DNA of 64,000 nucleotides from Marsupella aquatica (lineage: Eukaryota; Plantae; Marchantiophyta): positions 24,929,538 to 24,993,537 of the forward strand of contig OZ316895.1 in assembly GCA_973895155.1 (NCBI GenBank), given 5' to 3'. A program made the translations under genes and the position numbers. The notes under the pieces were generated by a model that saw nothing but the letters and a program-made list of their open reading frames with translations, had not been told where the DNA came from and ran no database searches. Shown one piece after another: positions 10,549 through 57,366 of the stretch. Each line of letters opens with the position of its first letter. The stretch's first letter is position 1.

Positions 10549-11684
10549 TGTATATATCTTCTCTGCACAGCGCGTGCAATGAGGCCGGTCTTCAGGCCAT
10601 TTCAGGGTATTTAGGGAGCGCGGTGCATGGTCTCCTACATGCAGTGCACGGTCTCAACGTTTCATTATTTGGACTCCCACAACATTATTATTAAAACCTT
10701 TAAACTCCACTAGTATTGATTAGGGTGACTTACGGGTGGTTGCCGTAGGCTCCCATAACATTATTTTTTAAGTGTTCATACACCACTAGCATTCATTGTG
10801 ACTCACTTGTAGTCCCGCACTCCCATAACATTTCCAATAAAAGTCTTTTGCAGCTATAACATTCATGTTGAAACCATTGGACTCCGTTAGCATCAAAAGT
10901 GTCACCATTCAATTTGGGTTCGTGAGAAATACAAAGGAAACAAAGCTTGGTCAATGCTTCTAGAATTCTTGTACCAGCCTTCAATCTGGTTCTTTAATGT
11001 GCTCGTCACCTTCAAATTCCCTTCTGCATTATTGTTGGGTCGGTATTTTGGTCGGGAAGCATTGGCCTTCAAGAATTCCTGTTGCTGGCCTTCAATCTGG
11101 TCCTTGACTGTGCTCGCCACCTCCAAATTCCCTTCAATCTGCATCTTGAATCTTGCATCGCTTGGATGGCGTACTGACATCGTCAATAATTGCAGCAAGT
11201 GATGGATTAGAGTCATTCACTGTCAGATGCAGTCTTCGAGCGAAGGCATTTCCGAATGGTTGCGTTTTTTATGCTTACTGGTGGCAGTGGCGTGGCGTGG
11301 TTTCAGGCTGAGTGTGCAGTGATGGAGCTTCTCTTCTGTACAACATCCATGGTTGCGGTATCCATGCCTTGCTACTCACCTCCATCTGTGTTGCAACTCC
11401 ATTCAGACACTCCTAGGACCCAAATCGCCTTCACTGTCCAACCCACCATACAACACTCTTATGTAAAGGCTGTGTCTCACATGCGATACATGGTATGTCT
11501 CCAAGTTTCAGCATATGGACTCCCACAACATTTCCGGTTAAAGTGGAGGCTCCCATAACATTTCCGGTTAAACCGTAGACTCCCATAGCTTTCATGTTGA
11601 AACCTTTAAACTCCGTTAGCATCAAATGTGTCACCATTCAATTTTGGACGTGGGAAATGAGATACAAAATTTTGGACGTGGGAA

Positions 11685-11945
11685 ATGCCCATGTGCTCAG
11701 ATGGGTATGTATGTTTCAAATTACAGTATTTTGAAGGTTGGGGGTTACGAGGGATGGGGTATTCCAAAACGCACAGCCACCATGTGTTGGGGTAATGCAA
11801 GTGCCAATGTGCTCCGAAGGGTATGTATGTATCAAATTACAGTATTTTGAAGGTTGGGGGGTATGAGGGATGGGGTATTCTAAAATGCACAGCCACCATG
11901 GGCTGGGGTAATGCAAATTAATGCCCATGTGCTCTGAAGGGTATT
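11685..11945. repeat. ~120-bp tandem duplication inside the long repeat
   Basis: GGGTATGTATGT..CAAATTACAGTATTTTGAAGGTTGGGGG...GCACAGCCACCATG occurs twice, with a third partial copy at ~12280-12350. Confidence 0.8.
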
Positions 11946-13039
11946 AATAGGATAATGTCCTGGTTAGAGGGCATTGTGGGATATAATGCTCGTAACTAGG
12001 ACATTTAATGTACGTAAAAACTTGAGTGACTTTTTGGTAACAAACAAGAAAAAGTGAATCCCTGAAATAGAAAATTCAAATTAAAGGGTCATCCAAGAAG
12101 TGGTTGCTATGGAATTGGCCAAAAATATACCTTCTTTAGTTATATTAGATTCTATTCATAGATATTGTGTTAGTATCAGGTAGGTGTTTTGTATAATCCC
12201 CTCCTAAAAAAAAGGGGTGCATTATGGAGAATTAATGCACTCAAATATACAAAGAGAAAAGCCACGAAAGTCTTTACGTATCAAAATTACAGTATTGAAG
12301 GTGAAGGGGGGTACGTGGGATGGGGGTATTCTATAACGCACAGCCACAGTTGAAGCCACTTTGATAAGTGATTACTCAGTTGAACAATAGGAGAGCAATG
12401 CTGCTCTAAGTGGAATGTCTTATTTTGTTTACGAGTGGAATGTTTTGTGGACTACCGTAAACAGACATGTTCATTAATGAAGAAATGCGGTGCTGGTCAG
12501 ACTGTCCTCACTGTTGTTTTTATAAAGTGGGATGAGAAGCTATTGACAAACCACATCATCACTGACCACACACACTCTTACTGTATAATAATCAGAAGTA
12601 CTCACTGTACTGTCCAGTAGTCTGCGTTTTTGGATTAGTTGTGATGATTTCTGTTCAGTCTGCTACTATAAGGAGGTTGAATGGGCAACCTTCCAGTATG
12701 GGTGAAGGTTTTTTCGGGAACAAACAGGCACAGCAGGGTAGTATGGTTGAATTGCCTAATCTATCTTGTTGTGGGCATTGTATTGCACCTCGCGCTAACC
12801 CTTGGTACACTCTTAATCTTAAAAGGTGTTCATCTGTAAAGGCCAAGTATTCTGATAAACCCACACAACACTATTGAAAGAAAAGGAACAAGGTTTAGAG
12901 TTTAGAGTATTCTGAGAAAACCACACACTGTTGACACTGTTTACATGATAAATGGCCATTGTCAGTAAGAGATACAAAAGTTGAGGTCATGTAATGCGGT
13001 ATTATGGTTCATATTATTTAGGAAATTGGGCCATATACG

Positions 13040-13435
13040 TGGATATCATGCACAAGCTAGGGTAATCTAATAATCGAGTAATGTACAACTAAGGTTAATG
13101 TTAGGAATACATCTGAACCTCGGGGTAATCCAATCACAAAGCAATGTACTAGACAAGTTAATCTTAGGATATTGTGCCATACACACGGATACGAAAGTTG
13201 GGGTAATCTTATCCATCAATAAATATACATTAATTAATGTTTAGGATTTGTGCCATACACATGAATACAAAAGCCGGGGTAATCCTACACAAGGATACGA
13301 AACGCAAGCCGGGGTAATCTTATAATCAATAAAGTACTAGTAAGGTTAATGTTTGGAAATTGGCCACACCCATGGATACAAAGCTGGGGTAATCCTACAC
13401 ATAGATACGAAGCAAATGCCGGGGTAATCTAATAA
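13040..13435. repeat. Degenerate tandem repeats with core GGGTAATC
   Basis: About seven recurrences of (G)GGGTAATC(T/C) at irregular 35-110 bp spacing. Copy 2 (60700-61045) has one fewer unit. Confidence 0.7.
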
Positions 13436-14634
13436 TCATAATTAAAGTACAAATGAATGTATTAAGGAATGTACTAAGCTGGGCTGTAAAAATGTGGGGT
13501 TTTACATACATGGACACAAGACTATAAACGTGACGAAATGATGTAATCATGCAGGTCAGGTAAAGTAGGAAGATTGTTTGTTACACCAACAGTCTTCGGC
13601 CACAAATGAGTTTTCGGCCACAAATGAGGTGTTGTACAACACATTTGTTATGTCATACAGCCATCCATTTGAGTAGTGTTTTTTTATCTAGATGTAAGTG
13701 TCCAGTGTGAGGGAAAATTGGCAGGTCATGTGGGACTGGGGAAAATAAATTTTGATTTGTGTGAAGTGCGCCTCACACGTCGCTTCTAGGTTCTGAAAAT
13801 CTAGGGTTGATGGTAAAAATGAAAATGTATAATCTGAGTATGAAATAGATACGGAGGTGTCGAGGAGTAAAACTAGACCAGACCAGAATGGGGCAGGGGG
13901 AGTTTAGGGTCCATTTATATTGAATGTAATGAGAGAATTGTTTACTAGAATAAATGGTACCCCATATTTAAATAACGTGTCTATTGATCGATACCCAGGA
14001 AAGAAAATACCGTCCTATCTTCTTTGCACTTCAACCGATGCACAATGCTTGCCTTTCTAGAGAACAAGGTAGCCAAAACAAATTCACCGAAGAGAATAGA
14101 TAGTTCAAAACTCCTGACTCTAATTTACAAATACTACAAAAAAACATTTGACTCTTACCTGAAGTTTTCCTATCGTCTAAAATCTTAAAGTTTCCCTTTC
14201 CTGAAGCTCAAATTGTTTTTCCTTCCCTGCCCTTCCTCAAGTTTTTTTCCCTAGCGCCTGAAGCTGGAGTTTTTTTTTCCTTCCCCCCTGACGGTGAAGT
14301 TTTTTTTTCTTCCTGGAAAAAGCTGAATTTTTTTTTGCTTGCTTTGGTTTTTGCTGTTTTTCTTCTCCCCCACTTTCACATTATGTAGGTTTGTACATCA
14401 TGTGCGAAAAAAACTAGGATACAATGTATGGATTTGATGAAAAAAATCACCTCTGGTTTAGGGAACCAATATAGAGCAGGTAAATTCAGGCATGTACTTT
14501 GGCTGGTATTTGTCCCTGCAATACCCAAAATGCTGGTCCGGTGAGGTTTAGGGTCTTTTCAGTACGTTTGGAGTCCTTCTACCGGCGCAGGGCGCCTTCA
14601 TGGGGTCCCTGCCCGCTTTGTTGCTTGCTATGAC

Positions 14635-15121
14635 TAATAAAAGTACCCTCATTAATAAGAGTACCCTCATGGACAAGGCCCAACACAAGGATACCCTTAG
14701 GAGATAAGAGTACCCTCACTGATAAGGGTACCCTCATTATCAAAGTACCATTGTTGATAAGTGTACCCTCATTGATACTTAAGAGTACCCTCATACGCAA
14801 GGGTACCCTCAGGAGATAAGAGTACCCTCATTGATAAGGGTACCCTCACTGATCAAAGTACCATTGTTGATAAGCGTACCCATTGATAAGAGTACCCTCG
14901 CTGATAAGAGTCCCTCGCTGATAAGAGTACCCTCGTTGATAAGAGTATCCTCAAGCACAAGGGTACCCTCAGGAGATAAGAGTACCCTCATTGATAAGGG
15001 TACCCTCATTGATCTAATTAAGTACCATCGTTGATAAATGTACCACATTGATAAGAGTACCCTCACTGATAAGAGTACCCTCATGCACAAGGGTACCCTC
15101 AGGAGATAAAAGTACCCTCAT
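14635..15121. repeat. 18-bp minisatellite (GATAAGAGTACCCTCAYT), copy 1
   Basis: More than 20 tandem variants of GATAAG(A/G)GTACCCTCA(C/T)T with a higher-order structure punctuated by CAAGGGTACCCTCAGGA. Confidence 0.95.
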
Positions 15122-15762
15122 TCACATGGGGAGCAATGAAAATAGGGATAATTGTAACCACGTCCAAAAGGTGAGATCTGTGATCATAGCCATTCAAAAA
15201 TACTGTCCTTCAAAACCTTGAGGACTTTAGTTTAAGAACTTTTCTAACAAACAGTTCAAGAATGTTTTTATAACAAAGAATCCAATAAAGTGTAAACTTT
15301 AATTTTATGGTGTTCAATTTTTTTAGATTTTCCCACACTATAGCAAACAAATCCACTGAATTTTTTTATTCTAATTCCAATTCAGTAAAATTTACAATTC
15401 CGGTCAAATAGTACACGAACCATTTCAGATCTGAGTACCGAAATGCCGTAAGTTGTAATTTTTATCATTAGATTTATGAATAATTCAACATGTAGGTGGG
15501 AGAAAGGGGGAATTTTGATGTTGAGGTACTCACCTTCATAAATCTACTATTGATTTGTCCCAAGGAGTGTACAGTTCTTTCCTTGGTCTCGCCTCAATAT
15601 TTGTACAATGTTGGCATGAATGACACTGCACAGAACACTAAAAGGATTTAGTGTCTTGAGGATGACCAAAAACAATGACAAGAAACCTGAAACTGAAACT
15701 CATTTGTCCAAGTGCATGTAGAGCTTCATATCATTGGCAACAATAGTGCTTGAAGCCAACTT

Positions 15763-16265
15763 ACTTTTGAATGACGTGTAAGGCAATATCTTGTGAAAGA
15801 GGGCCGATAGCTTCCCAACTACTAAAGAAGTAGATTTTGCACTCACAAAGTCATCCCAACAACCAGATCCCCTTGTGCAATCTGAGAAACGTGGAGTATT
15901 CAATAAAAAGTTCAAAGCAAAATGTAATAAAACCATCATAAACTCAATATAATGAAATGTAACCATGTCCTTTGTGATAAATTCTGCAAACCCTTCTGCT
16001 TTTTAAATATCTACTAATTAAAAGGAAAAGGATAATACACCAGAATTTACTTCAAAACTCACTGTCAATCATGTTCTCCGAACAATAAGAATGATAGGGA
16101 GGGAAAATGTCAACCTGGGCATACGCCCAAGTCAGGGTGTGAAGCTTAATTTTCAGGATCCTGGAATTGTGGCCGGAGAGAGGCAGCTTGCAGCAACAAG
16201 TGCTTCAGGCTTCTTCCTCATCAGCATAGCCAACACCACTAGGAGACCAACCTAGAGCAAGTACA
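15763..16265 (-). pseudogene. Two-exon fragment of a TMEM214 (DUF2359)-like plant gene
   Basis: Minus strand reads VGLLVVLAMLMRKKPEAL...KLHTLTWAYAQ, then a GT..AG intron (16114-15882), then IAQGDLVVGMTL*VQNLLPLVVGK. This matches the remembered plant DUF2359 motif VLAMVLRRKP...WMIAQASQGDLAVGLYSWAHNLLP. Has a stop and frameshifts. Confidence 0.7.
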
Positions 16266-17477
16266 GGTCGAGCTCCCTCCTTGTTTGTGTAGTTCAATGT
16301 TCTGACCATGTTCAATGTGCTGCATTCCCTTGGGTTTGGATGATCTTCCCTTGGCAGAAATGAGTCACATTCCAGAGTTACTCCATGCATAATGATTATT
16401 CACCTGCCCCTGGGGTTGGATGATCTTTGTGTGGGATAAATGCCCGGTTTGAGTTAACGGGCAAGTTTACGTGTTGCCCTACGGGGTGTGGTTGGGACCG
16501 GGTGGGGTTGGGATAGGGTTGGGATGAGGTTGGGACGGTGTCAGGATAGGGGCGGGATGACCAGGTGTGACGGATGACAAATCAAGGCCAAACCAGGCAT
16601 AAATGAATCACACTTCAGAGTTACTCAAGGCAAAATGATTATTCTTCTGCCGCCAATCTGAATTGACTACTTGTAGCCTGGTGGAATCAGTGGATACTCA
16701 TTACTTGGCGAGAGGTTGCACCATAAAGATTGTTATGGTTAGGAATCAAATAATAGTTGAGTGTTCATTAAGTGTTTATAATACCTTGAAAGGGTTTAAC
16801 AGTTTAATGATTAGATGCATGGGACCCGGATGGGATCCCATATGAGCTTACACTTTGAATCGTTCAACAATTTGAACAATAAAATGTACAAGGGTAAATT
16901 TATAAGAAGGTAATGGCATTGTGACTTTTTTCATCAAAGCAAGCTGGAGTGCCAGTTCCTTGTTATTAGGATATATCTAGATCCAGACTAGCTCCAGAGT
17001 ACCAAAATCTCTGCACTTTTGGGGCACTCTGTTGTGCTATGCATTTGAGGGAGTATTCATATCTATAACTAGACCAATGCCCGTGCGTTGAACAAAAGAT
17101 GTTGACATGAGAAAACATACCAAGGAGAGAGAAAGAGTAAAAGTGAGGAAAAGATATCAAAGTGAGAAAACTAAGTGAATAGTTTAGCTACTCATTTGCT
17201 AAACTAACAACAATAAGTTCAGCAGTTAATTGGCAAGGGAGTCCACCCTACAATTTAGCTGGTTGCAGTCAAACTGGAGTTTGGACTTTGAATGCCATAA
17301 ACTTACATTCCACCATGGGTGAGTGCAATGTGTGTATTTAGGCAAAGCTCAGATAATTGAAGGGAATGGGCTTACTCCCCTCTTTTATAGGGGGAGTGAC
17401 ACTTATTTCACTGACAGTTTACATAAGACTGCAAGATGAGCATCACTAGAAATGGAAAATTAGTAAGAAATCATTAG

Positions 17478-17496
17478 TAAACCCTAAACCCTAAAC
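17478..17496. repeat. Short interstitial plant telomere repeat (CCCTAAA)n / telo-box
   Basis: TAAACCCTAAACCCTAAAC. Confidence 0.7.
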
Positions 17497-17866
17497 TTTC
17501 TACAGTAGTTGATTCTAAGTGTGTTAATTTATATATATAGTGCACGTTGCACATATTGGTGAGAGGCAGCCAGGGGTGAAGTCTCAATGTGTGATCACAT
17601 GTAGGGTCTGTTGAGGGGAATCTAACATTTAGGATACTTAGACCAGTACTGTCAAAGAACTCACACTCCCCTGCTGTAAATTAAGCCGACATTGCTCCAA
17701 AGCAGAGACAAACTTTCTAAGTTCATTGATCTACAAAACTCTCCCCACATTGAGACCTTACTAAAATAGAAAACGAGGAAGAAGTACATTTAAGAAAACT
17801 AAGGACCAATTTCCTGAAAAAGGCCAAACAAAGTACAATGGAGTAAAGCAAATTATAGAGATAAAC

Positions 17867-17885
17867 TAAACCCTAAACCCTAAAC
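17867..17885. repeat. Short interstitial plant telomere repeat (CCCTAAA)n / telo-box
   Basis: TAAACCCTAAACCCTAAAC. Confidence 0.7.
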
Positions 17886-18099
17886 TTTACCCTCAGCTTA
17901 AGTGATTTAGAAAGGAAATGCAAACACTATATATATTATCGGCGCATTACGGCCGTAGTGCAGCGGCTGTGTGGCTGTTTTGGAGGCCTGTAACAAGTGT
18001 AGTGGCGGTCGTGAAGAAGATGGTGTGGTCGTGTGTATACAAGCATCTGGCCCGTTCATTTAAAATCCACGGCCAACATTCATTGTTGACTTTCCATGC

Positions 18100-18310
18100 T
18101 AATATTTATTGTTACGATGGCTGATATTTATTGTTGACTTGTCGTGTCAAGGAGGTACTTTCCACGGCTAACATTTATTTTTGACTTTTCACGGTTGATA
18201 TTTATTGTTGGCTTGTCCTATCGAGGAGATACTTGTGGCGGATAAGCAGGTTGATATTTATTGTTGACTTGTCTTGTCGAGGAGATACTTGTGACATATA
18301 AGCAGGAATG
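18100..18310. repeat. Short tandem repeats GATATTTATTGTTGACTTGTC
   Basis: Five recurrences of ATATTTATTGTT(G/A) or close variants with shared downstream GAGGAG(A/G)TACTT. Confidence 0.7.
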
Positions 18311-18659
18311 ATGATTTGTATACATAATTATGTTAACCATATATTGTAAGAACTGGGATTTTCCATTGAAGATTGGATTGAATTGAAGTCCTTGCACATG
18401 ATCTTGCCCATCTATCTCTTCTTATTGACAGTCCAGATTTTCTCTGAATTTCCCCTCTTTCTAGACTAAGTGTTGGCTTTTCTTTATCATCTTCCTTGTC
18501 CATCTTTTACAACTGACTGCCCAATGTGTCAGTCTGCCCTTGTTGTGGCTGTCTATACTCAGGGATCAAAGGTTCAAAGGTTTAGTGTTGATTTTCCCTT
18601 TTGTGTTGGATTTTCTTTATCATCTTTCTTGTCCATCTTTTACAACATGGTTGTCTCTA

Positions 18660-20118
18660 TCCCAACAAACAACTTCCCCGGCAACTCCCAACCCACAATG
18701 TCAACCCCCACCCACAACCAAACTCCAAACTCCTTCAACCTCCAACACATAACTCCCCAACTCCCTCAACCCCCAACATACAACTGTCTACCTACCCAAC
18801 CCAAGACACAACTTCCAATCCTTGAACCCCCAACACCCAACTCTACAACAAATTAAATCCCCAACTCACTCAACCCCCAACACACAACTCTCAACCTACC
18901 CAACCCAAGACACAACTTCCCCTTGAACCCACAACCCCTTAATCCCCAACACACAACTCCCAACCCCCTCAGCCCCCCAACACTACACCAAATTTTGTAA
19001 CTCCAAACTTTCTCAACTCCCAACATAAATCTCTCAACCTACCCAACCCAAGACACAACTCCCCAAATGAATCCCTCAACCCCCAACACCCAACTCTACA
19101 ACAAATTAAATCCCTAACTCCAGACTTTCTCAACCCCCAACACATCTCCCCCAACCCATGCCACAACCCACAACCAAACTCCCCAACTCACTCAACTCCC
19201 AACACACAACTCTCAACCTACCCAACCCAAGACACAACTTCCCCTTGAACCCACAACCCCTCAATCCCCAACCCACGACTCCCCCAACCCACAATGTCAA
19301 CCCCCACCCACAACCAAACTCCAAACTCCTTCAACCGGTAAACACATAACTCCCCAACTCCCTTAACCCCCAACATACAACTATCTATCTACCCAACCCA
19401 AGACACAACTTCCAATCCCTCAACCCCCAACACCCAACAATCCCCAACACCCCTCAATCCCCAACACACAACTCCCAACCCCCTCACACCCCAACACAAC
19501 ACCAAATTTTGTAACTCCAAACTGTGTTAACTCCCAACACAAATCTCTCAACCTACCCAACCCAAGACACAACTCCCCAAATGAATCCCTCAACCCCCAA
19601 CACCCAACTCTACAACAAATTAACTCCCTAACTCCAAACTTTCTCAACCCCCAACACATCTCCCCCAACCCATGCCACAACCCACATTTCCTAACCTAAC
19701 CTACAACCAAACTCCCCAACTTACTCAACTCCCAACACAGAATTCTCAACCTACCCAACCCAAGACACAACTCCCCAAATGAATCCCTTAACCCCCAACA
19801 CCCAACTCTACAACAAATTAACTCCCTAACTCCAGACTTTCTCAACCCCCAACACATCTCCCCCAACCCATGCCACAACCCAAATTTCCTAACCCAATCT
19901 GCAACCAAGCTCCCCAACATACAACTCTCAACCTACCCAACCCAAGACACAACTTCCCCTTGAACCCACAACCCCTCAATCCCCAACACACAACTCCCAA
20001 CCCCCTCAGCCCCAACACCACACCAAATTTTGTAACTCCAGTCTTTCTCAACTCCCAACATAAGACCCTAAACCCATGCCACAACCCACATTTCCTAACC
20101 CAATCTACAACCAAACAT
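18660..20118. repeat. ~1.45-kb C/A-rich strand-asymmetric complex satellite upstream of the YR-helicase gene
   Basis: Almost G-free on the + strand. Recurrent modules TCTCAACCTACCCAACCCAAGACACAACT, CAACCCCCAACAC and CCCCCAACCCATGCCACAACCC. Confidence 0.95.
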
Positions 20119-20839
20119 TGATGTCCTTAGTTCAAGCATTTTGTCTTCATTAGATGGTAGAGTTGCCACATCACATTATACAGTGGTTGCCCACATGTAT
20201 CGCATTACACAGTGGTTGCAGCTAGTCACTTTGCAAATGTCGGCGGCAAGTTGAACTGCGATAATCTACCTTTGGGAATTGAACAGAATCATTCTACAAG
20301 CTTCCAAGCCCCATAATATTTTGTCAGGTAAATTAAATAAAAGTAATCTATTGGGACAAGCTTTAATTCATGAAGGACATAATTCCTTAAATTCTCTTAA
20401 CAAATGCGAATATATGCATGGGATTATGATTTTGAATCTATATATGTATGCAAAATGCATTGGGCATGTAGCTGTCAGTTGTGCTCTGGGGGTTGACTGC
20501 ATAGCTGGCCATGCAATGATTATCTATTTTTGTGCACACATTTATTAGCTTTACATTGATGTCTTCAGACTCCAAATCTTTACGGTTTTAGTTTATTACA
20601 TTGCTCTGAATTTTTTACAGAGAACTGAACTCCAATAGACTACCTTGTAACATCATGATCAGAACTCAAGCGCAAGCTCAATTATAACTATGCTTGAGAG
20701 TTCAGTAGCTTGGTAGATACTAGAGACAAAGAACACTTGCATGAGCTTCCTGTAATCTATTCCTGCGCTTCTTGTAATCTATTCCCGATAGTACATGGCG
20801 ATTTATGGCACGAGCTTGTGACATTGATGTGTAGGATCG

Positions 20840-23800
20840 ATGGAGACAACCATTTTTCCATGTAGTGCGTGTGAGCAGATTTTTCAATCAGCAAGAGCAA
20901 GAGATGCTCACAAACGTTTTGAGCACAGGATGACGTTCAAATTCAAGCATTGCGATGGCACTGTGGAGATCCTCCACAAGTCTGAAAATGGGATGTTCGC
21001 ATGCCCCGATAATATGTGTTCTCAGTATTACACACGCGGCGATAGTCTTCGCCGACACTATGACACAATCCATGTTAATCAAGTCGAAAGATTTGTTGAT
21101 CCACACGACTTGGCGGTTAATGAAGGATTGTGCATTACACCAGATCATTCTGGTACACCAGAGATCTTGAGAAGTGTTAATCTCTGCGTTGTTCGTCATG
21201 AGGAATTGGTTTTCCTTGTATGTATAGAGTGTCATTCGGTACTCATATACAATGAAAATATCAATATCATTCATCATGTTCAAAAGCATCAACGGGAGAA
21301 ATCAAGGTGTCATCGAATAGCATCAGACTACGACAGTCATCAACTATTGAGGAGCTTACAACAGTTCTCTTTTACAAGCATGGATGATACATCCATATTA
21401 CCATATACAAGAGATCCACCAGCTGCATTGCTTTCTCCAGTACCAGGTGTTGTCATTCGACACGGCTTTTCTTGCAAACAATGCATCTACTATTGTGGGG
21501 AGAAAAGGTCAATGTCCAATCATCGTTTGAGAAAACATCCTGAGTTGTCCTATGTCAATGTGAAGAGTGAATGCCAAGTTCAAATCCTCTCAGATCGTGT
21601 TATAGGCCTCAAATACTTCGGTGTTCAACATCACAATCTCAATCTCGATGGGGATGACTGTCACTTGCAATCTAAAAGTTTGAGGGCTATAATCACAAAG
21701 GAGTTTGATGACCATTTTCAGTCTTTGCGGTTAGAACTTCTACCTCCAATTGCTGAGCTAACTCCATGGCTAGCACAGTCTAAATGGCATGAGCTTGCGG
21801 CCCAATTCATGCCAAAAGGGGTACCATTTTTGCAGGTGAAAGCACAGATGCTCCCACCACCAAAGCAGGGCAAATCTCCACTCTCATATGTCAGTCAAGT
21901 GGTGACTATCTACATGAACAATGTACAAGATTTGGTTCTTAAAGAGGTGGATTACAGATTGAGAAGACTAGTGGAGAAGACAAATATCAATGATGATGTT
22001 GCAGTGGGATTCAATCAATTGAACTCAAAATCATCAAGGAGTAGGTACTGTGATATAATCACAGAATTCATTCTCTGCTTGCTTCGATCATCTTCTAATG
22101 AGCTTAGTTCGGACATTCATGTTTTTCAAACAAACAGAGAAGAAATGGAAATTGCTCTTCAAAAATTCATGAGTCAACTCAATGAATTAGATGACAATTC
22201 TATTGACAATGTTGATTTAGCTGTTCTACATAATGTGTTGATTCATCTTTGGACTCCAAAGATGCCTGCAACACTTGAAGCAGGAAGAGCAGCGAACTGT
22301 ATTTTCACTCGGTTTCTTATTTTACATTCACTCATAAAAGTTGGCCACAGTCCAGAAGCAGAAGAGTATTCATTTCGGCATGTTCGTCATCTTACACAAC
22401 CAATGGCGATACTCAAATATTGGGCTAGGGTGACCATTTTGATGCACCTTGCACAATGTTTTTGGCATAAAAACCCAAGCACCATTCTTAATGAAGAAGC
22501 TGATCGACTTCTTCAATATTTAAGTGACATAGCACTACCTACTCCATTTACTATTGTATCGCAATCTCTGCGCTTGGCAAATAGGATTACTGCAGGGACT
22601 CCAGTATGGCCAAGACTAGTACCATTGAATGCCAATAATACAGCATGTCTAGTTGATGGTGAATCTATTACAATCGACAATTTTCGAGATATGGTGCATG
22701 CTATTATTCAAGAAGCCCACTCAATTTTAAATTGTGATGTGCTTCTTGGTCTCCGAACAGATTGGGTTGACAAATTACTTAAGGAGAGTCGTGCTATTTA
22801 CGACGATGTCAACAACACAGAAGTTGGGTACAACTTTGTCATAGATCCTCGCAACCGGATTCTTCAGCAACATGGCCTCGATCTACTAACACACTTGTTT
22901 GTTGATCCTAAGATTAGAGGACACTTTATTCTCGGGCGGACAGATCGAAATGATGTCATTTGGAATGATATCACACTTTATAAGTGGATGACTGCTTGCT
23001 CTGATTTACAAGAAAAATTGAATCTGCTTATACATTTCACTGCCGGTCTACCAGCAAGGGGCGAAGAGTACAACAGTTTCTTGATTCGCAACACAGCCAC
23101 AAGCGAGAGGTCATTTTATTGGGCAACAGCAGGCCCAGATGATGATCCAACAACAAAATTGTTAGAGCATCATACAATAGCGCTCTTTCAAACCTATCAT
23201 AAAGGTGCAAATACAGGTGCTCCAATGAAACCACTTATACGGTTTCTTCCAAGTTCTTTAAGAACTCTGTTTCTGGTATACTTTTGTTTGGTGAGGCCTA
23301 CACAATCTTATGTTGCACAGAAAATATGGGGAAAGGAGGTTGCCCGTAATTATGATGATTGTTGGTTCGTTGATATGGATAAAAAGCAAGATGCACATGA
23401 TCTTTCCAAGAGCATACACAACAATTTCTTTAAGCGTTGTGGAGTCACATTCGGGCTTTCAGAATACCGACACCTAGCAGCATTTTTTTCAGAAAAGATT
23501 CGAGACCAACGCACTCAAGATCTTGATGATATTGTAGATGTGGCAGGTGGACATACAACAGCTACAATGGGACATCATTATGCTCAAAGTGTAAAAGATT
23601 TAAGAGCTATTGATGGACATCTCTTGAGAGCATTCCGAATATTTACAGATAAGTGGCATGCATTGCTTAATCTTTCGGATAAGTCCCCAAGATTGATTCA
23701 TCTGGATAGCTCAACAACAGGTTGCAGGGAAGTCACACTAGATCCTTTTCCAAGAACCACTACTGTTCTACGTCCACGTCATGACATTGAGCTTGAAATT

Positions 23801-25801
23801 GATCATGTTCCAAGCAAGACAAGGGTTGTTTATTGCCCTGCCTATGGAGAACCATCAACATCAGTTGTGGGAGATGTTGATTCGGCACTGCACATCTGTC
23901 ACGACACAAGTATAAGAGCTTCCATAGCTCTACACAAGTTGGGTCACAAAAGGTGGAGGTCAACTGAACAAGCAATCTCTGTTGCTTTGGCTATTGAAAA
24001 CACTGTGGATTTTGTAACTGTACTTCCCACTGGAACAGGAAAGTCATTGATTTTCATGGCCCCTTCCACATTGATGGACAAAACAGTGATTGTGGTAGTC
24101 CCATTCAAATCTCTCATATCGGGTCACTTATCTGAATGCAGAAAAGCAGGAATTGGTCACACTGTGTTCACAAGTGGATTTGCACTCGGGATAGGAGTAA
24201 CACCTGCAATTGTTTTTGTATCTATCGAGACTGCAGCTGATTCAGATACATTTGGTGTCTTTGCAAACCACTTGCAAGCTACACAAAGATTGCATTCGAT
24301 TGTTTTTGATGAGATTCATACACTACAGTGTCATTTCCGTCCAAAAATGAGAAATCTGATTTCTCTAATGAAAGTTCCTTGTCAAATTATAGGATTAACA
24401 GCGACATTACCACCCACACAACAATCTGATATCGAACTGACTTTGGGTTCAAGATTACATTGGGTTCGTTCTTCTACTGTTAGGCCAAACATCCGATACA
24501 TGGTTGTGGAAGTGCCTGACATGGATGGAGAAATAGTTAGACAGCTTCAAGATTGGAAGAGATCTAGCCTGGTTCATGACCGGGCCATTGTCTATTGCCT
24601 AACAAGAGATGAAGTCCAAGAGATGGCAAAGCTACTCGAAGCCAGGAACTTGTGCTGTACATTTTTGCATGCAGGATGTAGCACAGCAGACACCGTGAAA
24701 ACCTTGAAGAAGTGGGAGTCGAAGGGTTGTGAAATCATGGTGGCAACTGGGGTCATTGGTTCTGGCTATAATTACAAGTCAATCAGACTTGTAATTCACA
24801 GAGGTAATTTCAGGTCCTTTGAGCAATTTCATTAGGAATCTGGCCGAGCTGGGCGTGATGGTTTATTAGCAATAAGCACTGTTGTTTCTAACTCCAGCTA
24901 CCGCAATGAGGCCTTGAGGATGGACTCCAACTTCAAGATTCCAAACAAATGGATTGAGGAGACAAAAATGTGTCGTCGCTTTGCACTACATGCTAGCGTT
25001 GATGGTAAGCCACAGATGTGTTACCTCATCCCGGATGCAATTCCTTGTGACATATGCTCCCAAGCAGCAGACAATCAGGAACTACCAATGGAATATGAGG
25101 CCGAAGAATTATCACAAGCTAGGTCAGAAGTGGTTGAAATTGTATCTCAGGGGAGCATCTCCCAAAACATACAAGGAGGACAGAGTGTTAGGGTTACAGC
25201 ACCAGGTGAAAGAACAACACCAGCATCATCACTCGGATCATCCCAAGGCAAAGGAACCACAACCACGGTTGTGGCAAGAGCTCGACCAACACTCATCAAA
25301 CAAAGAATTGACGAAGCCATGAATAAGATTTGTATCATCCGTAAATTTGCTGGGGATAGGAAAAAGTGCTTGATGTGTTGGAGTCCCCTCTCAAAGAGTG
25401 TTCCTCATGGTATTTTGCAATGTCCTTATGTACGGGGACGATGTGTGAAGTGTCTAGGAACACACAACCGTGCAAATTGCGATAACAAGTTTCCTTCTCG
25501 ACCAGACACTTGTTTCAAGTGTCACTTCCCACACCAGCCTAGTGGGATGAGATTTCATGAAGGGCTGTATGGAGATCAGTGTGAAGATGAATCAGGAGAG
25601 AGATTGCGGCTTTTTGTGTGGAAGGCATGGCGATTTGATAACATACAGAGCGATTTATTCCGAGCAATTCCTGAAATCAAAGGGAAAAGTGACCAGGAGC
25701 TGTGTGAATGGGTTGTGTCTACAAGTCCTGAGGCTCTGGGCAACAATTTTATGCGTCTTGTAGCAACCATTGTGAGGATCAAGTATCCTGAATTTCGGTG
25801 A
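20840..25801 (+). pseudogene. Zinc finger + tyrosine-recombinase-like domain + RecQ-type SF2 helicase + Cys/His-rich tail (telomere-linked-helicase-like), ~1653 codons, one internal stop
   Basis: N-terminal C2H2 fingers (CSAC...HKRFEH; CPDNMC...HYDTIH; CIEC...HVQKH; CKQC...HRLRKH). YR-like motifs GLPARGEE, TYHKG, SEYRHLA, GGHT, HHYA. Helicase motifs LPTGTGKS, DEIH, LTATLPP, IVYC, HAG, VAT, [Q>*]ESGRAGRDG, then RQC-like CRR...CDIC. ORFs 20840..24835 and 24914..25801 are in one frame, separated only by TAG at 24833-24835. Confidence 0.9.
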
Positions 25802-26995: not shown

Positions 26996-28295
26996 ATGGC
27001 AGATCATTCGAACGACCAGATGGCAGGAAGAGCAAAACTGCAAGCCAAGGACCATTATGTGTTGGGGAACGATACCCGTGTTCCAACTGACGTTCCTCCT
27101 GCTGCAGCAAAACATCCGTCATTGAGCCAGCGATTTGAGAATTCTCCCCTTGACCAGACCGTCGATATGCCTCTCGCAGACGAACAACCAGGGTGTGGAT
27201 ATTTGGGATCCTTGAAATTGCCATATACATGTCTTATGCGAAAGGTAAGTTCCTACTACCGGTTGCACACTGATAAATTTCATCTCTGTACTATGCTAGC
27301 TTGTTTTTGTAGTAGCATAGTTTCTCAAGATCTCTCATCTTTTTGGCAATTACCACATCTTGGAACCTCTTCCTCGCACATTAATCTTTTTTGGCTTGCA
27401 TGCTGCATTGAAAGCACTCGCTCCGAACTTCTCGGTGAGGACTACTACAGGCTTTTTTAAAAGTTTCAAATGAATGTCATGGACCCCTCTACCCAGTCCT
27501 CACATAAGTCCTTGTAATTAATCCCGATTAATACTTGGGAGCTTGTGATACTGTCCGCAGTATTGCTGTTGGGAAGCTAAATAACATTCCTTTGAAGCTT
27601 ATACGAACGAAATGAATCTGAACGTAGACATCCTCAATGGGGTCAATGCAATAAGTGAGTGAAGACCACATCCCTTGAGGAGAACAATGCCAACGGCCAA
27701 TCTCACCAGCTAACCAGGAGAAATCCTTGTATTGAAGCAGGTTGGAGCAGAAATCATTGCTACTTTCATCCTGGTGTTCACTGATTGTGGATCTGCGGTA
27801 GTGGATGCGAAGCTCGATCAATGGAGCCGTGACGCATGTGGGCATGTCTTTATCTTTTGGGATTGTTGTCATGAACATGATATATGCAGTGGGTCACATT
27901 TCAGGTGCACACTTGAATCCTTCGGTCACCGTTGCCTTTGCAACTGTGCGGCATTTTCCCTGGAAAGATGTGAGTGCTTTTGCCAGAATGCTTGCCTAGA
28001 TAAGCAATCTTTCCATCAAGCATATTCTTTAGTGGAAGTTGGGTACGGGGTCGTAGAGGATCGAGATCAAGTCAAATCAACAACAGATGATGGATTGCAC
28101 TAAACCCAGGGGTCAATTGCAATGCTGTACACCACAGGTGCCATTCTGCATTGGCGGTCAAATAGCGGTTGGAATCTGTGCAGGGTATTGTCTCAGGCTA
28201 TCTTCAGGGATCATGGGCATCTCGGGGCCATTCTACCCGCTGGTAAAGACAGGCAATCCTTCATTCTGGAGATCATCACCGACTTCATCCTTAAG
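26996..28295 (+). pseudogene. NIP-type (nodulin-26-like) aquaporin, 5' three exons, frameshifted and truncated
   Basis: Exon 1 ~26996-27244 ends at GTAAGT. Exon 2 27741-27969 reads VGAEIIATFILVF...SFGIVVMNMIYAVGHISGAHLNPSVTVAFATVRHFPWKD (NPA-type box NPS). Exon 3 from 28138 reads VPFCIGGQI. The second NPA half is missing. Confidence 0.9.
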
Positions 28296-30603
28296 CCTGC
28301 TTTGTCTCAGCCGCAGTGCCCAGAGCAAGGGTCTATGATCTAGAGTCTCAAACTACGTACCCTTTGTTTCTGTTTCATTTGAACATGTAGGCTATCCAAA
28401 AAGGAGACTTTTGCGTTCAAGATCAACTAATCTAGGAATATATATATTGCGCTTCAGTTGCTGTGTCAGGAGAGCAAATTCAATTGTAATCTCCTTGAAA
28501 CAGACATTCACAACAGTACCAAAATAAATGATGACCCTAAACTTGTGACTTGTCAGGTTTTGACGGCATGAATGGTTTCTTCAGCAGAATACCAGATCTG
28601 TAGAGCAATTGGGGTTGCCACATTCACCTCAATACATAAACTTTCAATCGTCTTCGTGAAACAACCGTCAAAGGTGAATCAAACCATTGATGATCACGCA
28701 TTGAGAGAGAACAAAACCAAACCTCAGAATAAAATATATGATAGTCAAAATTGACTCTGTTTTTGTCAAAGAATTAAGCGAGAGACCATTTGCAACGCTC
28801 TCTTTGTGCTTGTCTAATGCAAATAAGCTCGTAACAATTGAAGCATATGATAACCGTCTAAATCCTCTATTAACTAATAACATTACTCTACTTTGCCCCC
28901 ACGGAACCAAGCGATTTTCCAGCTCACATTGGACCAGGCTCAAAATACTCTTGAGGACTCTGTGTTGTATCTTGCTTCACCTATAATTCACCAAAGAGTG
29001 AAACAATTTTGAGAGCATTAAGAGACGACAGCCCCCGGCCCCTGTCCGACAGTCCAACCTCTCGGGGCTATTTTCATCTGGTTTACAATCTGTGCTGACC
29101 AAATCAGGTACATTCACAGTAAACTTCTTTTCTTCAGACTTTGCAGAGCGTATTCACCATCAAAGCTCGGTTCGAGTTCAATGCCATAGTGGTTCCACAC
29201 ATCATTGATTTTTGGGGGGTCTTGTGTCGGTCCAGATATCGAATGAGATTATAGTGAAGGGCCCAATGGGCCTGCTCACTAGGGAGAGTTGTCTAGAGAA
29301 TGGAACAAATGCAGCGAGGGAGCCAACCAGAGCTCCGTAGACATCGACGAGGAACCGTGGATGTCTCTGCCAAAATTTACTACCACTCTGCCCACGCTAC
29401 AGTCGTGGAGACGGCAAGACCCTTGAGGTGAGCATTCACTTGTTTTTCACAAGAAGAGATTGACACTTGGCTTCTGGTTGGTAGTTATGGAGCCTGTTAT
29501 CAAATTGAAGAGTTAACCCTGATCAAATGAAATTGGTGCAATCGAAATGATATGACGGACTTTTGGTTTGTGATGTTCCTGCGGCTTATGCCAAATGTGC
29601 GCCCCGTTCAGGAGATCAACACACAGCACATCTACTACCCGGGAGGCATGGATGACACTAACAAACAGTGACCCTAAGGAGAGCTCTTGTGCTGCAAAAC
29701 ATGTAGCATCAAATATGGATTGACAGTAGTCGACCGGTAATAAAGAAGCAGTAATCATAGTACAGAGTATGTCTCCTTTTTCTCTAAACATCTGGGTTGA
29801 TCGTCTCGATGCTTCTTCAACTGAGAACGGCCATGGATGGAGAGCAGTAAAGCACAGGATAGGGCAGCGCAGAGTTGATGCTTATTTTGTTCCTAAAAAC
29901 AACGTTGATTTACAACCATGACGTTGGACATTGTCTTTGATTTGCAATTCTGACAATTTCTAATGTGTTTTCTATGGTCATAGCCCATTCATAGCCTGCT
30001 GCATCACAGGCTTTTAATTGAGAAGGAGAGTTTTAATGTCCCTGCTTGGACTGAGGATGGTCTAATTATGAGCATCAGACACCTGAAATACAAACACATC
30101 CCGAAACTTGCCCTACTTCTCCTTGGTTTAAATCTCCCTAAACCCCTTCAAGCCCTCCACCAAAGGTCTTCAAACCCTCCACCCAAGGTCATGGAAAGTT
30201 TGTAGCATTAACTAGCCAATTAACCTATTTGGACTGTAGAGTTGGCATTTGGGCTGCATATATAGTTGGTGCCTGAGTAGGCTGACCCAATAAAGGCCTC
30301 TGGCTACGCAAATTATCTACATAAGGTGGGATAATTTTGATTTATTTGGGTGTGTTAGTTTTGCCTTATAGATTTTACCTACTCTACCCTAGGCCTATTA
30401 ACTTCTAGAGCTATAAGAGTTGTAAATTATTTTCTAAAGTAAGTCAATATACATAAAGATTTTGTCAAACATAAGTATTTATATTACAATTACAATCCTA
30501 AACTAAATTGGTCCAAATATTAAATACATATTTAATAAATTTCATAATTGTTTCTAAAAAGATACATTAAAGTTTGTTTCATGATACCTGAAACATATCT
30601 AAT

Positions 30604-32045
30604 TTACTCTATTCTATTTAATAATTGTCCTAAGCCACTATTCATAACTAAAGCTGCAATATATGCAGGATTTTCTGTTGGTTTTCTAAAAGCCATACCA
30701 TGGAGATGTTTGCCTTTGAATGCAAATAAATCACCATTATGCAAAGGTAATATAAATCCATGTTTGGCAAATACAAAATCAACTGGTGAAATATGTTCAT
30801 CAGGGTGACTAGTATATGCTAGTGTCCACTCTGTGCTATCATTGTCCACATGAAAACGTGAACAATAATCTCTAGTAATGAATAGTTGATAAGCAGGAGG
30901 TCCCTTCTTCATGTGCTTATCAAAAAATGGTATCTCAACACCTTCCTTAATATATTGGGAAGTTTCTAAGTAAGGGTTACAACATCTAAGAAAAGTATGT
31001 AATAACGTAGGATAATATCTAAACCACATAGACATTAAAATTTCTACCACAGCCCCATGTGCAAATCGATCAATAAATCTACCAAAATCTTTTAAAGGTT
31101 TTGAAGCTTTTACTAACTTATTACTATGAGTGTAGAAAGATGTAACATTTTTTCCAGGTGTCCATGTATGGTGAAATGGACCGAACCCCACCATTTCACT
31201 CATATAGGATGCTCTAGTTTTAGATCTTTTTGAACTTGGATGAGCACAAAAAAGATCTTTAAGATAAGTTCGCATCAATATAGTAAAAGATTTATGAACA
31301 TCTTTAGGGCGAATATGGATACCCACTAGCTCACTTGAGATTTTATCATAGATCTCCGTAACCTGTTTTGTTTTTTGGATTTCAACGTAAGAAATTGGAA
31401 GCTCCCTATATATAGGTGCCTCTTCAATTTCAATTTCTTTCCCTTTGTTTTTCTTCTAGAAAGTATTTGTAATGTTTTTTCTAATTCTAAGCGATAAAAA
31501 CATTCACCTTCATCATCAACTCTTCCCCAAAATCCTTGCACTAATTCCATTGGATTCACATTTCCCCACCAAAATTGGGAAATAATTTTTTCAAACACCA
31601 TTTCTTTTTTCTCTAGCATATTTTTTTCTCTTTTTACACACTCTTCAATATAGGTAGATGACCTAAGAAAATGGATGTATTTTCTTATACTATAGGGTAC
31701 TGAATCTAAAGAATAATGATGATCAAGAATATCACAGATATTCTCCCATGCGCAAGAAGTAAAGGTTTTTGGTGGTCCAATTTCTTTAAATCTATAGTAA
31801 GCATTATATATCATTGCTTTCGATACAGTATGTTTAATATTCAATACATTTTGTACAAATGCTTGAAAAATATTATCTTCTTGAAGAAGAAATAACATGG
31901 CAAACTTTTGTGAACGTGGATGCAATATCATGATCGCTGAAAAAATTTGAATGAAAACGTCCATTGCAAATTTCATTTTCTCATACTCATATTTGCCATC
32001 TTCCTTCATTTGTTTGTTCACTTTCCAAAACTTTCGTTTTGCCAT
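30604..32045 (-). pseudogene. 2OG-Fe(II) dioxygenase, TET/JBP-like, paralog 1 (frameshift near 31440-31460)
   Basis: ORF 30604..31326 has RFHVDND (HxD)...DFVFAKHGFILPLHNGDLFAFKGKHLHG (distal His). ORF 31326..32045 aligns with the N-terminus of 43014..44405. A polypyrimidine-AG acceptor directly precedes 32045, so upstream exon(s) are probable. Confidence 0.75.
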
Positions 32046-33277: not shown

Positions 33278-33601
<324 letters not shown>

Positions 33602-38824: not shown

Positions 38825-41458
38825 ACCTCAGCGCCTACCCTTGCCCCATCGCCTCTATCTTAGAGCAAGATGAGCACCCGCATACGACTAATGTCTACCC
38901 AACACTCCCCCTTTCTATTTGGCCGCGCCAGCAGCCAGCCATGCATTTGCAGCAAGGTGCAAATTGGCATGACCAACATGACACAATAGTGTGAAGTATT
39001 TCGAGATCAAAATTCTTCTCGAATCTCCAATGTGTAAATGCGCACTCTGTACGGGGCGAAATACTTCTCCTTCAATGTCTGTCTAGGTTGTTTCGAGCTG
39101 CTGCAGTTGTACTCTTCCCTATAAGCTGTGCTCTTGTCATTGGAAATGGAATGTGATTTCGTGAATGCCTTCTGCATATGAGGGCTAGGGACATCTACGA
39201 TATTTTCTGTAGATGGCAATTTAGGAAAACATAAGAAATGATGGTGGATATGTGCTCCTGTGTCGTAATTGTTTTTGTTTAGCTACAAAATAATGTTCTG
39301 GACCTAATTCCGACTTTCTATCCAGTTGACTTGGTTTAGAAGATGCTATTGGCTTGGTGGTGCATAAAGATCAACGCAATAAACTATCTTCTGCTACAGT
39401 TTAGTTCCTGGCCATATCATGATCGTTTATTAAGATTAATGGAGTCCCTTACCATGTGAGAAATCAGTCGGTGCTTTCATCTCCACAAGATTTAGAGGTC
39501 TGTGTTTCTGAGGTGTTGTCAACACTATACTGCCATAGCAGCCCACTTATTATCCAAGGTTTCAGATTTCAAGCTGCCTGATTTTGGGGATTACTCCTCA
39601 TTGTGAATAAGAGCCTCGACGTTTCAGATTAGGTCGGTCGTGGTCTGCAGAATGCGGTGAAAACTACTTCTCTCCTCGTCTATAACGTTTGTAATCTAAG
39701 TTGAATCATTATTACTGGAACTCGGTCACTAGCCAATTTCAGAACAACCTTTCGTACGTGGGCGACTTCTTGCAGTATTATTGCAGAGTCTCAATCTGCT
39801 CTTCATTGAAATTAAGATGTGGGTACGATTCTTGCCTCAGCTCAAAACAAGGCAAATCAAACAAAACTTCTTGTCTGGAGACTCCAGACAGTACGATTAT
39901 GTAAGTGACAGCTCAAAACAAGGCAAATAATTACAGAGGCACTCATGAGATCGATAGGCATGGGGCCGGGTCCCATCTGGTGCCGCGAACGCTTCCCAAA
40001 AAAGGTTATTTTCCTAAATCATGGATCTGAACCTATTGGTGTAAGTATGGTTCGCGCTTGTCTTGCTGGTAGACGAGCTAGACTGCAGCGGCCGATGAGG
40101 ACGCAAAATTCCTTCATTTATGCCATCACAAATTGGCAAGCTGGTGTAGGGCTCTGAATCAATTGAGTAGCTAGACAAAGTGCCGTCAACCTGATCAAAA
40201 CTGGGGTCTCCAGTAAAATTACAAGGTGGGATTTGGAGTATGCCTAAGGTGCCGTGTTGTATTAATCCGAATGGCTACTAACTCCAGCCGTAAACTTATG
40301 TCTATTGATATGGACCTACTCTAAATGATCTGTACAAAGCTTTAGTCAAAATGCCCCTCATGTCCTTTAGTTCAAGGACGTTCTTAAGATATTCATAGGA
40401 CTATCTCTTTTCCGCATACACTTAACATAGAGTTTCGGATATCATCACAAGTCTACCTCAGTCACTGAGCTAGGACAAAATGTCAACAGAAGTGGTAGAG
40501 GCAAGACGTGTAAAATCCGTAAACATGCACCTTCAGTGAGGCAGACTTAGTTCAATTTTTCCTTCCGATCTGCTATGAAAGCTGGTTGGCAACCTGTCGC
40601 TTTAAGAGGACCAAGGCACTTTAGATCTTGATTTCACAAATTCTGATACAATTGACGCTGGTTTCTGATCATGGGGCACCGGCGAATGAAGGTGCAATGG
40701 TCCAGTAAAACAGACTGACCAACGACTCGATTTCTCCATTGGTGATAGCTTGAGAAGGAAACCCGCAGATAGTACTGCCAAATGTTACTAATTGACACAG
40801 AGGTCAGAATCGAGTTACAAATCTCAAAGTCTGATTTGTATCGCTCCTTGCTTTCCTGCCCAGCTGATCGTCCGTCAACAGAACGAGTACTGTAGTAGTA
40901 GCGATCTCTCAACAACACAACCCACCAGGCTTGGGAGAAGGTTACAGCTACTGTGAAGGAATAGCTCCCAAAACATGGTAAACACGTCACTCGTGATGTC
41001 GTGCAATCCAACTTTATAGCGGACAGCTAATGTGTCAATTGACTAAATTGAGCTTTTGTTTTAACGTCTTTTAGCAAAAAGGGAGTCATTCAGCGGGCGT
41101 TGGCTTTTGCTTTTTAAACCACGGCGAAAGACCAAAAAGAGTCATAAGCTCGGATGGGATGTTGAAAGAATCATGCATTCGTAGAGGATATCCATGTAAA
41201 CTTTTAAACTCCCATGTCATTCCAAAATGCACTTTGTGTGAAAATAAAGAATTCTTTACTCTAAATCTTTGTCATCCTAGTCAAAATGTATATTTTCATA
41301 AATCCCTGTAATCTTGGGAATTCTCGGACCATGTGAATTCATATAACACCGCTGTGTTGTATAGATTCATAAGACAAATGGTCAGTGGAACTTTAGGGTT
41401 CATAAAAGTTTAGAGACATAAAAGTGTGCTTTTGGTTCTCTCTGGCAAACTACAACTA

Positions 41459-48486: not shown

Positions 48487-48824
48487 GAAACTGCAGAGTT
48501 CAGCAGCAAAACCGTGGGCGTGACAGGAGACAGTTAATTCGTGAGCAAAGGATGCGAGTTGCTCATAACGGCTGCACAATACATGGTTTGAAAATGTCGC
48601 TAGATTTCGGTCTTCCCACGCGCAGTACAAAGGAGAGCAGCGCCACAGCAGCTTGTTGCCAATTCTGCAGCTGATGAGGGATCATTTGATCCAATCATGA
48701 GAGAGTCATCAACAAACGCAGAAATGGCGCTCTTGAGGAAATCACGTCCTATTGCTCGGAGGTCTCCGTATTCACCTATTTCACAGCATTGTAAAAACGT
48801 CCGGGCAGCGACTGGAGGCTAGCT

Positions 48825-57178: not shown

Positions 57179-57366
57179 TTAAAGAAGACCAGGCTTCCTG
57201 ATTAGAACTAATTCACTCTGTACAGTTGTGATATATTATTTACTTTCTAGACTCAATGCTAATCCACACTCGGGTCTATACCCGATCCGCCTCAAACTCT
57301 TGGGCCCGTAATGCCAGGTGTTGTAATTCAGCTTCCTCCCGTTGTTGCTGCTCCTCAGCCTACGCC

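Follow-up and report, generated by a model that had tools for sequence, protein, structure and literature searches.

Telomere-linked helicase (TLH) proteins are composed of two C2H2 motifs, a domain of ~250 amino acids (aa) and a RecQ helicase; the available part of the source states that the function of the TLH domain is unknown and explains TLH regions by telomere maintenance (10.1101/2024.02.27.582403). An intronless gene of this type occupies positions 20840–25801 of a 64,000-nucleotide (nt) stretch of the liverwort Marsupella aquatica (contig OZ316895.1, positions 24,929,538–24,993,537 of the forward strand), the whole of which we call the window. We consider it probable that this gene encodes the enzyme by which a large DNA element with cargo moves itself in a liverwort-type plant.

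According to the portions of the papers available, TLH regions of Magnaporthe have a telomere-like array upstream, end sharply on one side at either the first or the second C of CCTAACC and are truncated to varying extents on the other (PMC1635262), TLH arrays of Fusarium contain interstitial telomere repeats (10.1101/2024.02.27.582403), and TLH genes of Botrytis vary among strains and have 'Helitron-like' repeats alongside (10.1101/2022.03.07.483234). From similarly partial texts, OrsD/DUF3505 helicases lie in Fusarium subtelomeres (10.1101/2023.02.05.527183), RecQ occurs in the DDE transposons KolobokH and Academ (PMC9587614, PMC3627910), and the accessible part of a 2026 survey of eukaryotic recombinase elements mentions neither a helicase nor RecQ (PMC13465315). 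A literature search that left most subscription papers outside its reach found no report of the TLH domain as a recombinase or of TLH in land plants. To TLH the window adds a plant copy that is almost intact, along with cargo, a defined end and presence/absence variation. The gene and its parts are the following.

20840–25801, plus strand: intronless TLH-type gene of 1,653 codons, with C2H2 fingers, OrsD, a recombinase-like domain, a RecQ core and a zinc/cysteine-rich tail.
20861–21538, plus strand: C2H2 zinc fingers at the N terminus, as read in the sequence, and OrsD (PF12013, aa 120–233, E 2.3e-7).
22340–23719, plus strand: predicted tyrosine recombinase/topoisomerase IB-fold domain, with R740, K788, R877, H905 and Y914.
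23969–25060 (end approximate), plus strand: RecQ-type superfamily 2 (SF2) helicase core, with LPTGTGKS, DEIH, motif VI with the stop, and RQC-like cysteines.

The frame runs from the ATG at 20840 to the stop codon that closes it at 25801, which upholds the intronless gene called by the first-pass annotation. The sole in-frame stop inside it, TAG at 24833–24835, replaces the Q of helicase motif VI, where relatives read QESGRAGRDG; the window copy of the gene is broken in this motif. Among the runs compared (X1–X6), an X1 contig crosses the stop at 24833 with one difference from the window, at a position not listed. At 50068, 50376, 51031 and 51494 the window differs from all four runs compared (T in the window and C in the runs at three of the sites). 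The window copy carries private mutations at these positions, and the helicase stop may likewise be one.

The C2H2 fingers, pre-helicase domain and RecQ core fit the TLH architecture as the available text gives it (10.1101/2024.02.27.582403), bearing out the TLH-type assignment made at first sight. The view that this is not a canonical RecQ gene also holds: it is intronless, it carries OrsD and the recombinase-like domain, and its helicase core scores 344–132 bits against nine family members versus 80 bits at best (BLM) against solved BLM/RecQ proteins. Pfam finds OrsD, DEAD and Helicase_C in the window protein and no recombinase family for its middle domain.

A HMMER search with aa 501–960 returns 1,177 proteins at E ≤ 0.001, and the best 150 were aligned for residue counts. 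Among these 150, a helicase is present in 44 of the 45 homologs of at least 1,100 aa; in 30 long homologs scanned, DEAD or Helicase_C is found in 27 and OrsD in 17. The five catalytic-type residues proposed from the motifs are at the positions claimed for them (R740 at 23057, K788 at 23201, R877 at 23468, H905 at 23552, Y914 at 23579). Counting rows with a residue there, R740 is kept in 146/146, K788 in 145/145, R877 in 123/127, H905 in 121/123 and Y914 in 120/125; all five are retained in 114 of the 120 rows that span them, a conservation above chance. Only 8 of 369 well-filled columns are at least 95% conserved, and the five residues account for five of these. The H-to-Y spacing is 9, and the order R, K, R, H/W, Y is that of the tyrosine recombinase/topoisomerase IB superfamily. 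The HxxR histidine, bracketed in the original proposal, has to be dropped: position 874 is Ser in the window and variable in homologs (A28/S26/R23/N21/Q11). The catalytic set thus reads as R-K-R-H-Y, which is the residue set of topoisomerase IB as well.

The alignment used to model the domain has 95 rows, which include 94 of the 150 homologs, for the most part shorter ones picked to keep within a size limit. The model has a predicted local distance difference test score (pLDDT) of 87.5 and a predicted template-modelling score (pTM) of 0.85; a single-sequence prediction is unusable (pLDDT 38.6). In a Foldseek search of the PDB, recombinases occupy ranks 1–4, with Cre and XerA first at E ≥ 0.3 (Cre, E 0.31). 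VIA-align on the Foldseek matches gives Z scores of 12.2 for XerH, 12.0 for XerA (root-mean-square deviation (rmsd) 3.8 over 178) and 11.1 for Cre, as well as 7.8 for human topoisomerase IB and 7.0 for TelA. A search independent of Foldseek, over 48,161 chains, has only recombinases and topoisomerases IB in its first 11 rows (XerA, Z 11.8, rmsd 3.9 over 180; XerH, 11.5; Cre, 10.6), and the first unrelated row has Z 8.6. With the confident model, the XerA/XerH/Cre matches at Z 10.6–12.2 and the conserved R-K-R-H-Y set, the tyrosine-recombinase fold predicted from motifs is supported at the level of the model. On this footing the membership of the domain in the tyrosine recombinase/topoisomerase IB superfamily is secure. 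The modelled fold fits recombinase and topoisomerase alike and does not decide between them.

No Pfam family matches the domain at E ≤ 1, DUF3435, DUF3504 and Phage_integrase are absent there and in 21 homologs, and helicases fill all 60 rows listed of 450 when the sequence profile is compared with the PDB. Atlas, whose matches are taken as leads only, gives fungal clusters at 0.97–0.98 and one of Phage_integrase at 0.85. Among viral structures (BFVD), the closest match is an uncharacterised protein of the Feldmannia species virus (B5LWN9, E 1.1e-4, TM 0.44), and integrases follow with weaker scores; on the model, this hints at kinship with recombinases of integrating brown-algal viruses.

The gene lies within a repeated unit with a sharp end. 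Its structural features are listed here; the related family named in one of them is described below.

10549–16389, plus strand: outer end segment with a sharp start, TGTATATATCTTCTC; its left flank is a high-depth host repeat.
14617–15140, no strand: 18-base-pair (bp) tandem array with GGGTACC-type palindromes, inside the end segment.
17482–17884, plus strand: two (CCCTAAA)2 plant-telomere-type motifs, at 17482 and 17871.
17927–18007, plus strand: candidate inner terminus, resembling the end of the related family read inward (CTATATATATTATC, then an inverted-repeat arm).
18700–20120, plus strand: compound array of degenerate, telomere-like, C-rich sequence (46% C, 3% G) that precedes the gene and is placed like the Magnaporthe HAR-CDEF.
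55958–57731, plus strand: four stacked end-segment remnants with the same terminus (at 55958, ~1.2 kilobases (kb); 57367, 38 bp; 57405, 29 bp; 57434, 300 bp).
57731–58189, plus strand: (TTTAGGG)2 and a G-rich tract (55% G, 1% C), 65–70% reverse-complementary to the C-rich array.
58190–64000, plus strand: the outer end segment for the second time, cut short by the edge of the window and 99.2–99.8% identical to the first copy.

The two copies of the end segment both begin TGTATATATCTTCTC and are spaced by 47.6 kb, and the sharp-end motif of the unit is (C)CTGTAYATAT. The six end copies in the window all face one way; their left flanks are unrelated, and C precedes five of the six. Contigs of X1 and X4 have further flanks joined at 57365 (CC included). 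A contig of X2 tracks the flank to 57368 and then departs, as an empty site would, and the overlap with the empty site is short (CC or CCTG, 2–4 nt). A search of the window for the other half of the target at the left flank found nothing. The joints of the remnants are at interior-like depth in X1 (133–180). Summed depth declines from the end inward, and there is no high-depth far end at 52–55 kb; contig depth is not equal to copy number, and the gradient is a hint only. There is no reverse transcriptase (RT) among the open reading frames (ORFs) of at least 200 aa between 10549 and 58190, a decayed RT not having been searched for, and the end motif occurs in none of the viral contigs. No credible inverted end is found in 25.8–58 kb, where the best candidate has E 7.2.

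At the candidate inner terminus, a contig of X5 (a third species label) starts aligning at 17923. Just inside it, 17981–18457 is skipped by a variant in runs X1 and X6, and in an X3 variant 17886 is joined to the C-rich array via extra CCCTAAA-like repeats. The 18-bp palindrome array recurs at 62226–62749; it is iteron-like and a possible set of zinc-finger binding sites. Motif-like matches at 37291 and 48426 were set aside (E 7.2 or no profile match; 48426 is inside a high-depth repeat). Targeting of telomere repeats at the 58189 junction was rejected, the G-rich strand there being without the CC overlap.

A related family carries a similar end. Relatives of the gene, 30–50% identical (about 35% between the families in protein), are encoded by 58 metagenome loci, many of them broken and 62–99% alike in DNA. 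Plant-type telomere motifs occur in 3 of the 58. Nine of the 58 carry a conserved end, and in all six aligned the sequence is conserved up to ATCATATGTATAG and then diverges. This end is joined to many flanks. In L007, L023, L036 and L037 it is found downstream of the gene, and in L047 and L051 it is downstream but inverted. In L025 and L028 it is joined into the family's own gene and in L046 to the DNA upstream of that gene; L007 has stacked end remnants. It includes a 9-pair subterminal inverted repeat with two-sided changes at four pairs (79.6% paired versus 72.1% in shuffles, 10/500), a test biased by the structure having been read from the same sequences. The best match of the end profile in the window is the candidate inner terminus at 17927–18007 (E 0.0037, 12.9 bits); further matches at 57433 (E 0.12) and 58190 (E 4) each reach the end of the profile.

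The related gene is joined near one codon (~aa 530) by three unrelated upstream sequences (L012:1849, L016:6693, L018:3207 and L025:2249), of which L016 and L018 share one. The DNA at the joint reads TGYACAATCYTC and resembles the end motif of the window; judged by its sequence, the joint is possibly a cryptic recognition site or hot spot. A 236-bp tandem repeat at 41458–42124 has a core, GGTCAAACAGCC, that matches the central part of the profile built from the ends of the related family (E 0.02).

Between the two end copies the unit carries cargo.

27717–28300, plus strand: fragment of an aquaporin (MIP/NIP-like) host gene that appears to retain an intron, judging by a GTGAGT donor in the sequence; the MIP match (E 0.0076) does not reach the family cut-off.
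30604–32045, minus strand: TET/JBP-like 2-oxoglutarate dioxygenase gene 1, AT-rich, split over two overlapping frames; PF20515 E 0.11, weak.
33377–33562, plus strand: fragment of a zinc-knuckle host gene; PF13917 E 7.7e-8.
43014–44390, minus strand: TET/JBP-like dioxygenase gene 2, an open frame of 458 aa with HxD...H...R.
48700–51630 (start approximate), plus strand: frameshifted copy of a leucine-rich-repeat (LRR) receptor kinase.

The two TET/JBP-like genes are 31% identical and both lie in AT-rich islands inside the unit. Atlas places them at 0.93–0.97 to clusters with 15–16% TET-family members, where clusters have any; gene 2 has one database homolog only (41%). The TET-like genes might protect the element from methylation silencing. 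The kinase copy was likely captured from the host. In four runs under two species labels, 92–98% of the words of the helicase gene are present; in X6, which has the same species label as X1, the fraction is 0.00. X6 contains one diverged 319-nt piece of the gene and a 97–99% identical kinase at depth ~4, the latter probably the native gene. In X1 the gene and the kinase cargo are on contigs of like depth (182 and 181). No RNA run is listed as containing the gene, which says nothing on its expression. Outside the unit, 1–5570 is a Gypsy-type retroelement, with RT on the minus strand (2–1333) and long opposite-strand ORFs at 1873–2757 and 3012–4667. A small repeat of very high depth is found in one of its ORFs (2683–2890) and in the first end remnant (55981–56130); in run X6 this repeat has a sharp start with many flanks.

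Taken as a whole, the locus is in our judgement best explained by a recombinase-helicase mobile element, a reading we hold with moderate confidence. The first-pass annotation had called the gene the mobilisation enzyme of the element; that claim stands on circumstantial grounds, which come from the termini, the cargo and the presence/absence. How such an enzyme would work is more tentative, and the mechanism we would favour is a one-ended strand transfer. The middle domain would recognise the end motif (C)CTRTAYATAT, nick the conserved end of the element and form a 3'-phosphotyrosine, as the recombinases and topoisomerases IB of this fold all do, and the fused RecQ motor would peel that strand for joining elsewhere. 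RecQ unwinds 3'-to-5' according to the part of the source available (10.1101/2024.02.27.582403); moving in this direction, it could load on the nicked end and unwind inward. Were the strand ending ...ATRTAYAG(G)-3' the linked one, RecQ would travel inward from the precise end; this would explain why only one end is sharp, why remnants can have any length, why depth falls inward and how cargo is gained at the far side. A CC/GG site, in many cases close to an older end of its own family, would receive the end, and copying would stop at variable distances; joining at one end with a variable stop would leave a single precise end and short remnants in stacks, and would let the element take up adjacent host DNA. 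Because such invasion would replace the DNA distal to it, it would be tolerated chiefly close to chromosome ends, and this would explain the subtelomeric location of TLH genes.

Several observations weigh against this reading. In the domain, the HxxR histidine is not kept (column 874), Foldseek alone gives no PDB match at E ≤ 0.001, and bacterial topoisomerase IB is level with Cre in the independent search (Z 10.6). The likeness of the ends of the two families is modest, E 0.0037 being equalled by 1 of 20 shuffled windows and the match at 58190 having E 4, and the end hairpins are no more stable than shuffles (six ends, z -0.2 to -2.1). The end motif is upstream of the gene in the window and downstream in the related family, which fits two inverted ends equally. 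Contigs of the end segment are 2–3 times deeper than the interior, as long terminal repeats (LTRs) would be, and the remnants begin TG, like LTRs. The far end of the element is outside the window, which stops within the second end copy. There is no true telomere array in the 64 kb, only (TTTAGGG)2/(CCCTAAA)2 and degenerate tracts.

The strongest competitor, unlikely in our view, is a two-ended element of Crypton/Starship type that leaves as a circle formed between its two precise ends and then integrates again. RecQ would be an accessory, the right end would lie beyond the 64 kb and the remnants would be nested self-insertions. Xer and Cre as the best fold matches, the short CC or CCTG overlap with the empty site and the end motif left of the gene in the window and right of it in the related family would suit it, as would the gene being the first long ORF after the end, like Starship captains in the part of the source seen (PMC10104507). 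However, the single orientation of all six end copies and the lack of a credible inverted end in 25.8–58 kb speak against it, as does the lack of any DUF3435, DUF3504 or Phage_integrase match in the domain or the 21 homologs, and the interior-like depth of the remnant joints demands co-amplification of several whole nested elements.

It is less probable still that the gene is a domesticated telomere-maintenance enzyme, a helicase with a topoisomerase IB-like swivel, carried passively in subtelomeric segmental duplication next to an unrelated repeat that makes the sharp end. The R-K-R-H-Y set and the topoisomerase IB match at Z 10.6 agree with this, telomere-like tracts flank the unit, and TLH genes are reported to be induced in telomere crisis, with TLH regions in arrays split by telomere repeats (10.1101/2024.02.27.582403). 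A passive telomere enzyme explains the topoisomerase-like residue set but not the self-insertion of ends. Against it, the gene is near-absent from X6 despite the shared species label, the related family is a mass of 62–99% identical, mostly broken copies with ends inserted in its own genes, and a similar end motif goes with the gene in two families that are only about 35% identical in protein.

The best homolog of the gene is a protein of the liverwort Calypogeia fissa, 59% identical over the searched stretch; a second clade member, also from Calypogeia fissa, is encoded on a Calypogeia sequence 46.8 Mb long. A FastTree of the domain has 153 rows: the window protein, the 124 of 150 homologs that are long enough, and 28 loci left from 37 after removal of near-duplicates. 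It is midpoint-rooted and carries no topology test, and 4 of the 152 homolog rows have a eukaryote name. The window protein pairs with the Calypogeia protein (0.998) within a 44-row clade (SH 0.997) that holds both Calypogeia proteins, unnamed metagenome copies in a burst and, partially aligned, a single protein of the oomycete Aphanomyces. The only named fungus in the tree, a chytrid, falls in the sister group. The suggested horizontal exchange with fungi is unsupported, as the nearest clade holds the Calypogeia proteins and the chytrid is only in the sister group. The TLH-type family is pan-eukaryotic, and the tree names neither donor nor direction. No named TLH is among the homologs listed, which are mostly unnamed, and the Atlas clusters are fungal; TLH membership rests on architecture. 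A word-index search finds one homolog only, a search with an alignment that covered proteins of 1,921–5,000 aa finds none, and a metagenome scan with the single protein gives 19 pattern matches, of which none was confirmed. That the DNA is a fungal contaminant, an endophyte or a very recent fungal insertion, as the fungal Atlas clusters nearest to the gene (0.97–0.98) and to the TET-like cargo and the intronless frame might suggest, is largely refuted and very improbable: the gene lies among plant retroelement and LRR-kinase sequence at matching depth, its closest protein (59%) and a second clade member are from Calypogeia fissa, and 92–98% of its words are in four runs under two species labels.

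To return to the recombinase-helicase element, a recombinase fold together with a short end seemingly common to two distant families places an enzyme, a predicted nucleophile and a candidate substrate in hand. An undescribed jumping element is likely driven by genes that have long been credited with a service to chromosome ends, and there is a real chance that an element of the TLH kind is a new class. More speculatively, TLH genes may have no housekeeping role at telomeres and be instead the transposases of an unrecognised, pan-eukaryotic class of mirror-image Helitrons whose arrays are mostly at chromosome ends, the liverwort copy being a recently amplified member of ~47 kb with TET-like genes for DNA demethylation and captured genes of the host, a plant counterpart of Starships. 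If true, giant cargo-carrying recombinase elements would be added to land plants, possibly with a new transposition chemistry, a 3'-linked peel-and-paste.

Compared with known systems, the window domain has the fold and catalytic order of Xer/Cre recombinases, topoisomerase IB and protelomerases (TelK/TelA, Z 6.4–7.0), but it is 8–22% identical to them and has long helical insertions and a fusion to zinc fingers and a helicase. Like KolobokH and Academ, the element would have RecQ as a transposon part; those use DDE transposases, none of which is seen in the window. With Cryptons (including CryptonA/DUF3504 and Glomhoppers) it has in common a eukaryotic DNA element, a tyrosine recombinase, no reverse transcriptase and a short target overlap, and it differs in the lack of a DUF3504 match, the helicase fusion and the large cargo, with flanking direct repeats not demonstrated. 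Like Starships, whose captains are DUF3435 proteins, it is a giant cargo-carrying element with a tyrosine recombinase gene near one end; unlike them, it has no DUF3435 match, a RecQ fusion, RKRHY rather than RKHRY, and a plant host, and one end and a 2–4 nt overlap are seen in the window, with no second end or direct repeat. Helitrons (RepHel), as generally known, resemble it in the fusion of a transesterase to a helicase, the capture of host fragments at the DNA level and one precise end with a subterminal inverted repeat. They have a 5'-linked HUH nuclease and a 5'-to-3' helicase, whereas the window has no HUH or PIF1 domain (Pfam gives DEAD/Helicase_C, with RecQ relatives only), and its predicted 3'-linked chemistry and 3'-to-5' motor would have the opposite polarity. 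The closest likeness is to the TLH systems (Magnaporthe TLH1, Fusarium TLHcr, Botrytis BcTLH, S. pombe tlh and Monosiga): two N-terminal C2H2 fingers and a conserved domain of ~250 aa before the RecQ core at a similar length, and, around the gene, upstream C-rich telomere-like arrays, a sharp upstream boundary, arrays with interstitial telomere repeats, and presence/absence among strains. Unlike TLH regions, which span 6–13 kb, the unit in the window is 47.6 kb long, resides in a plant and carries TET-like genes and host fragments as cargo.

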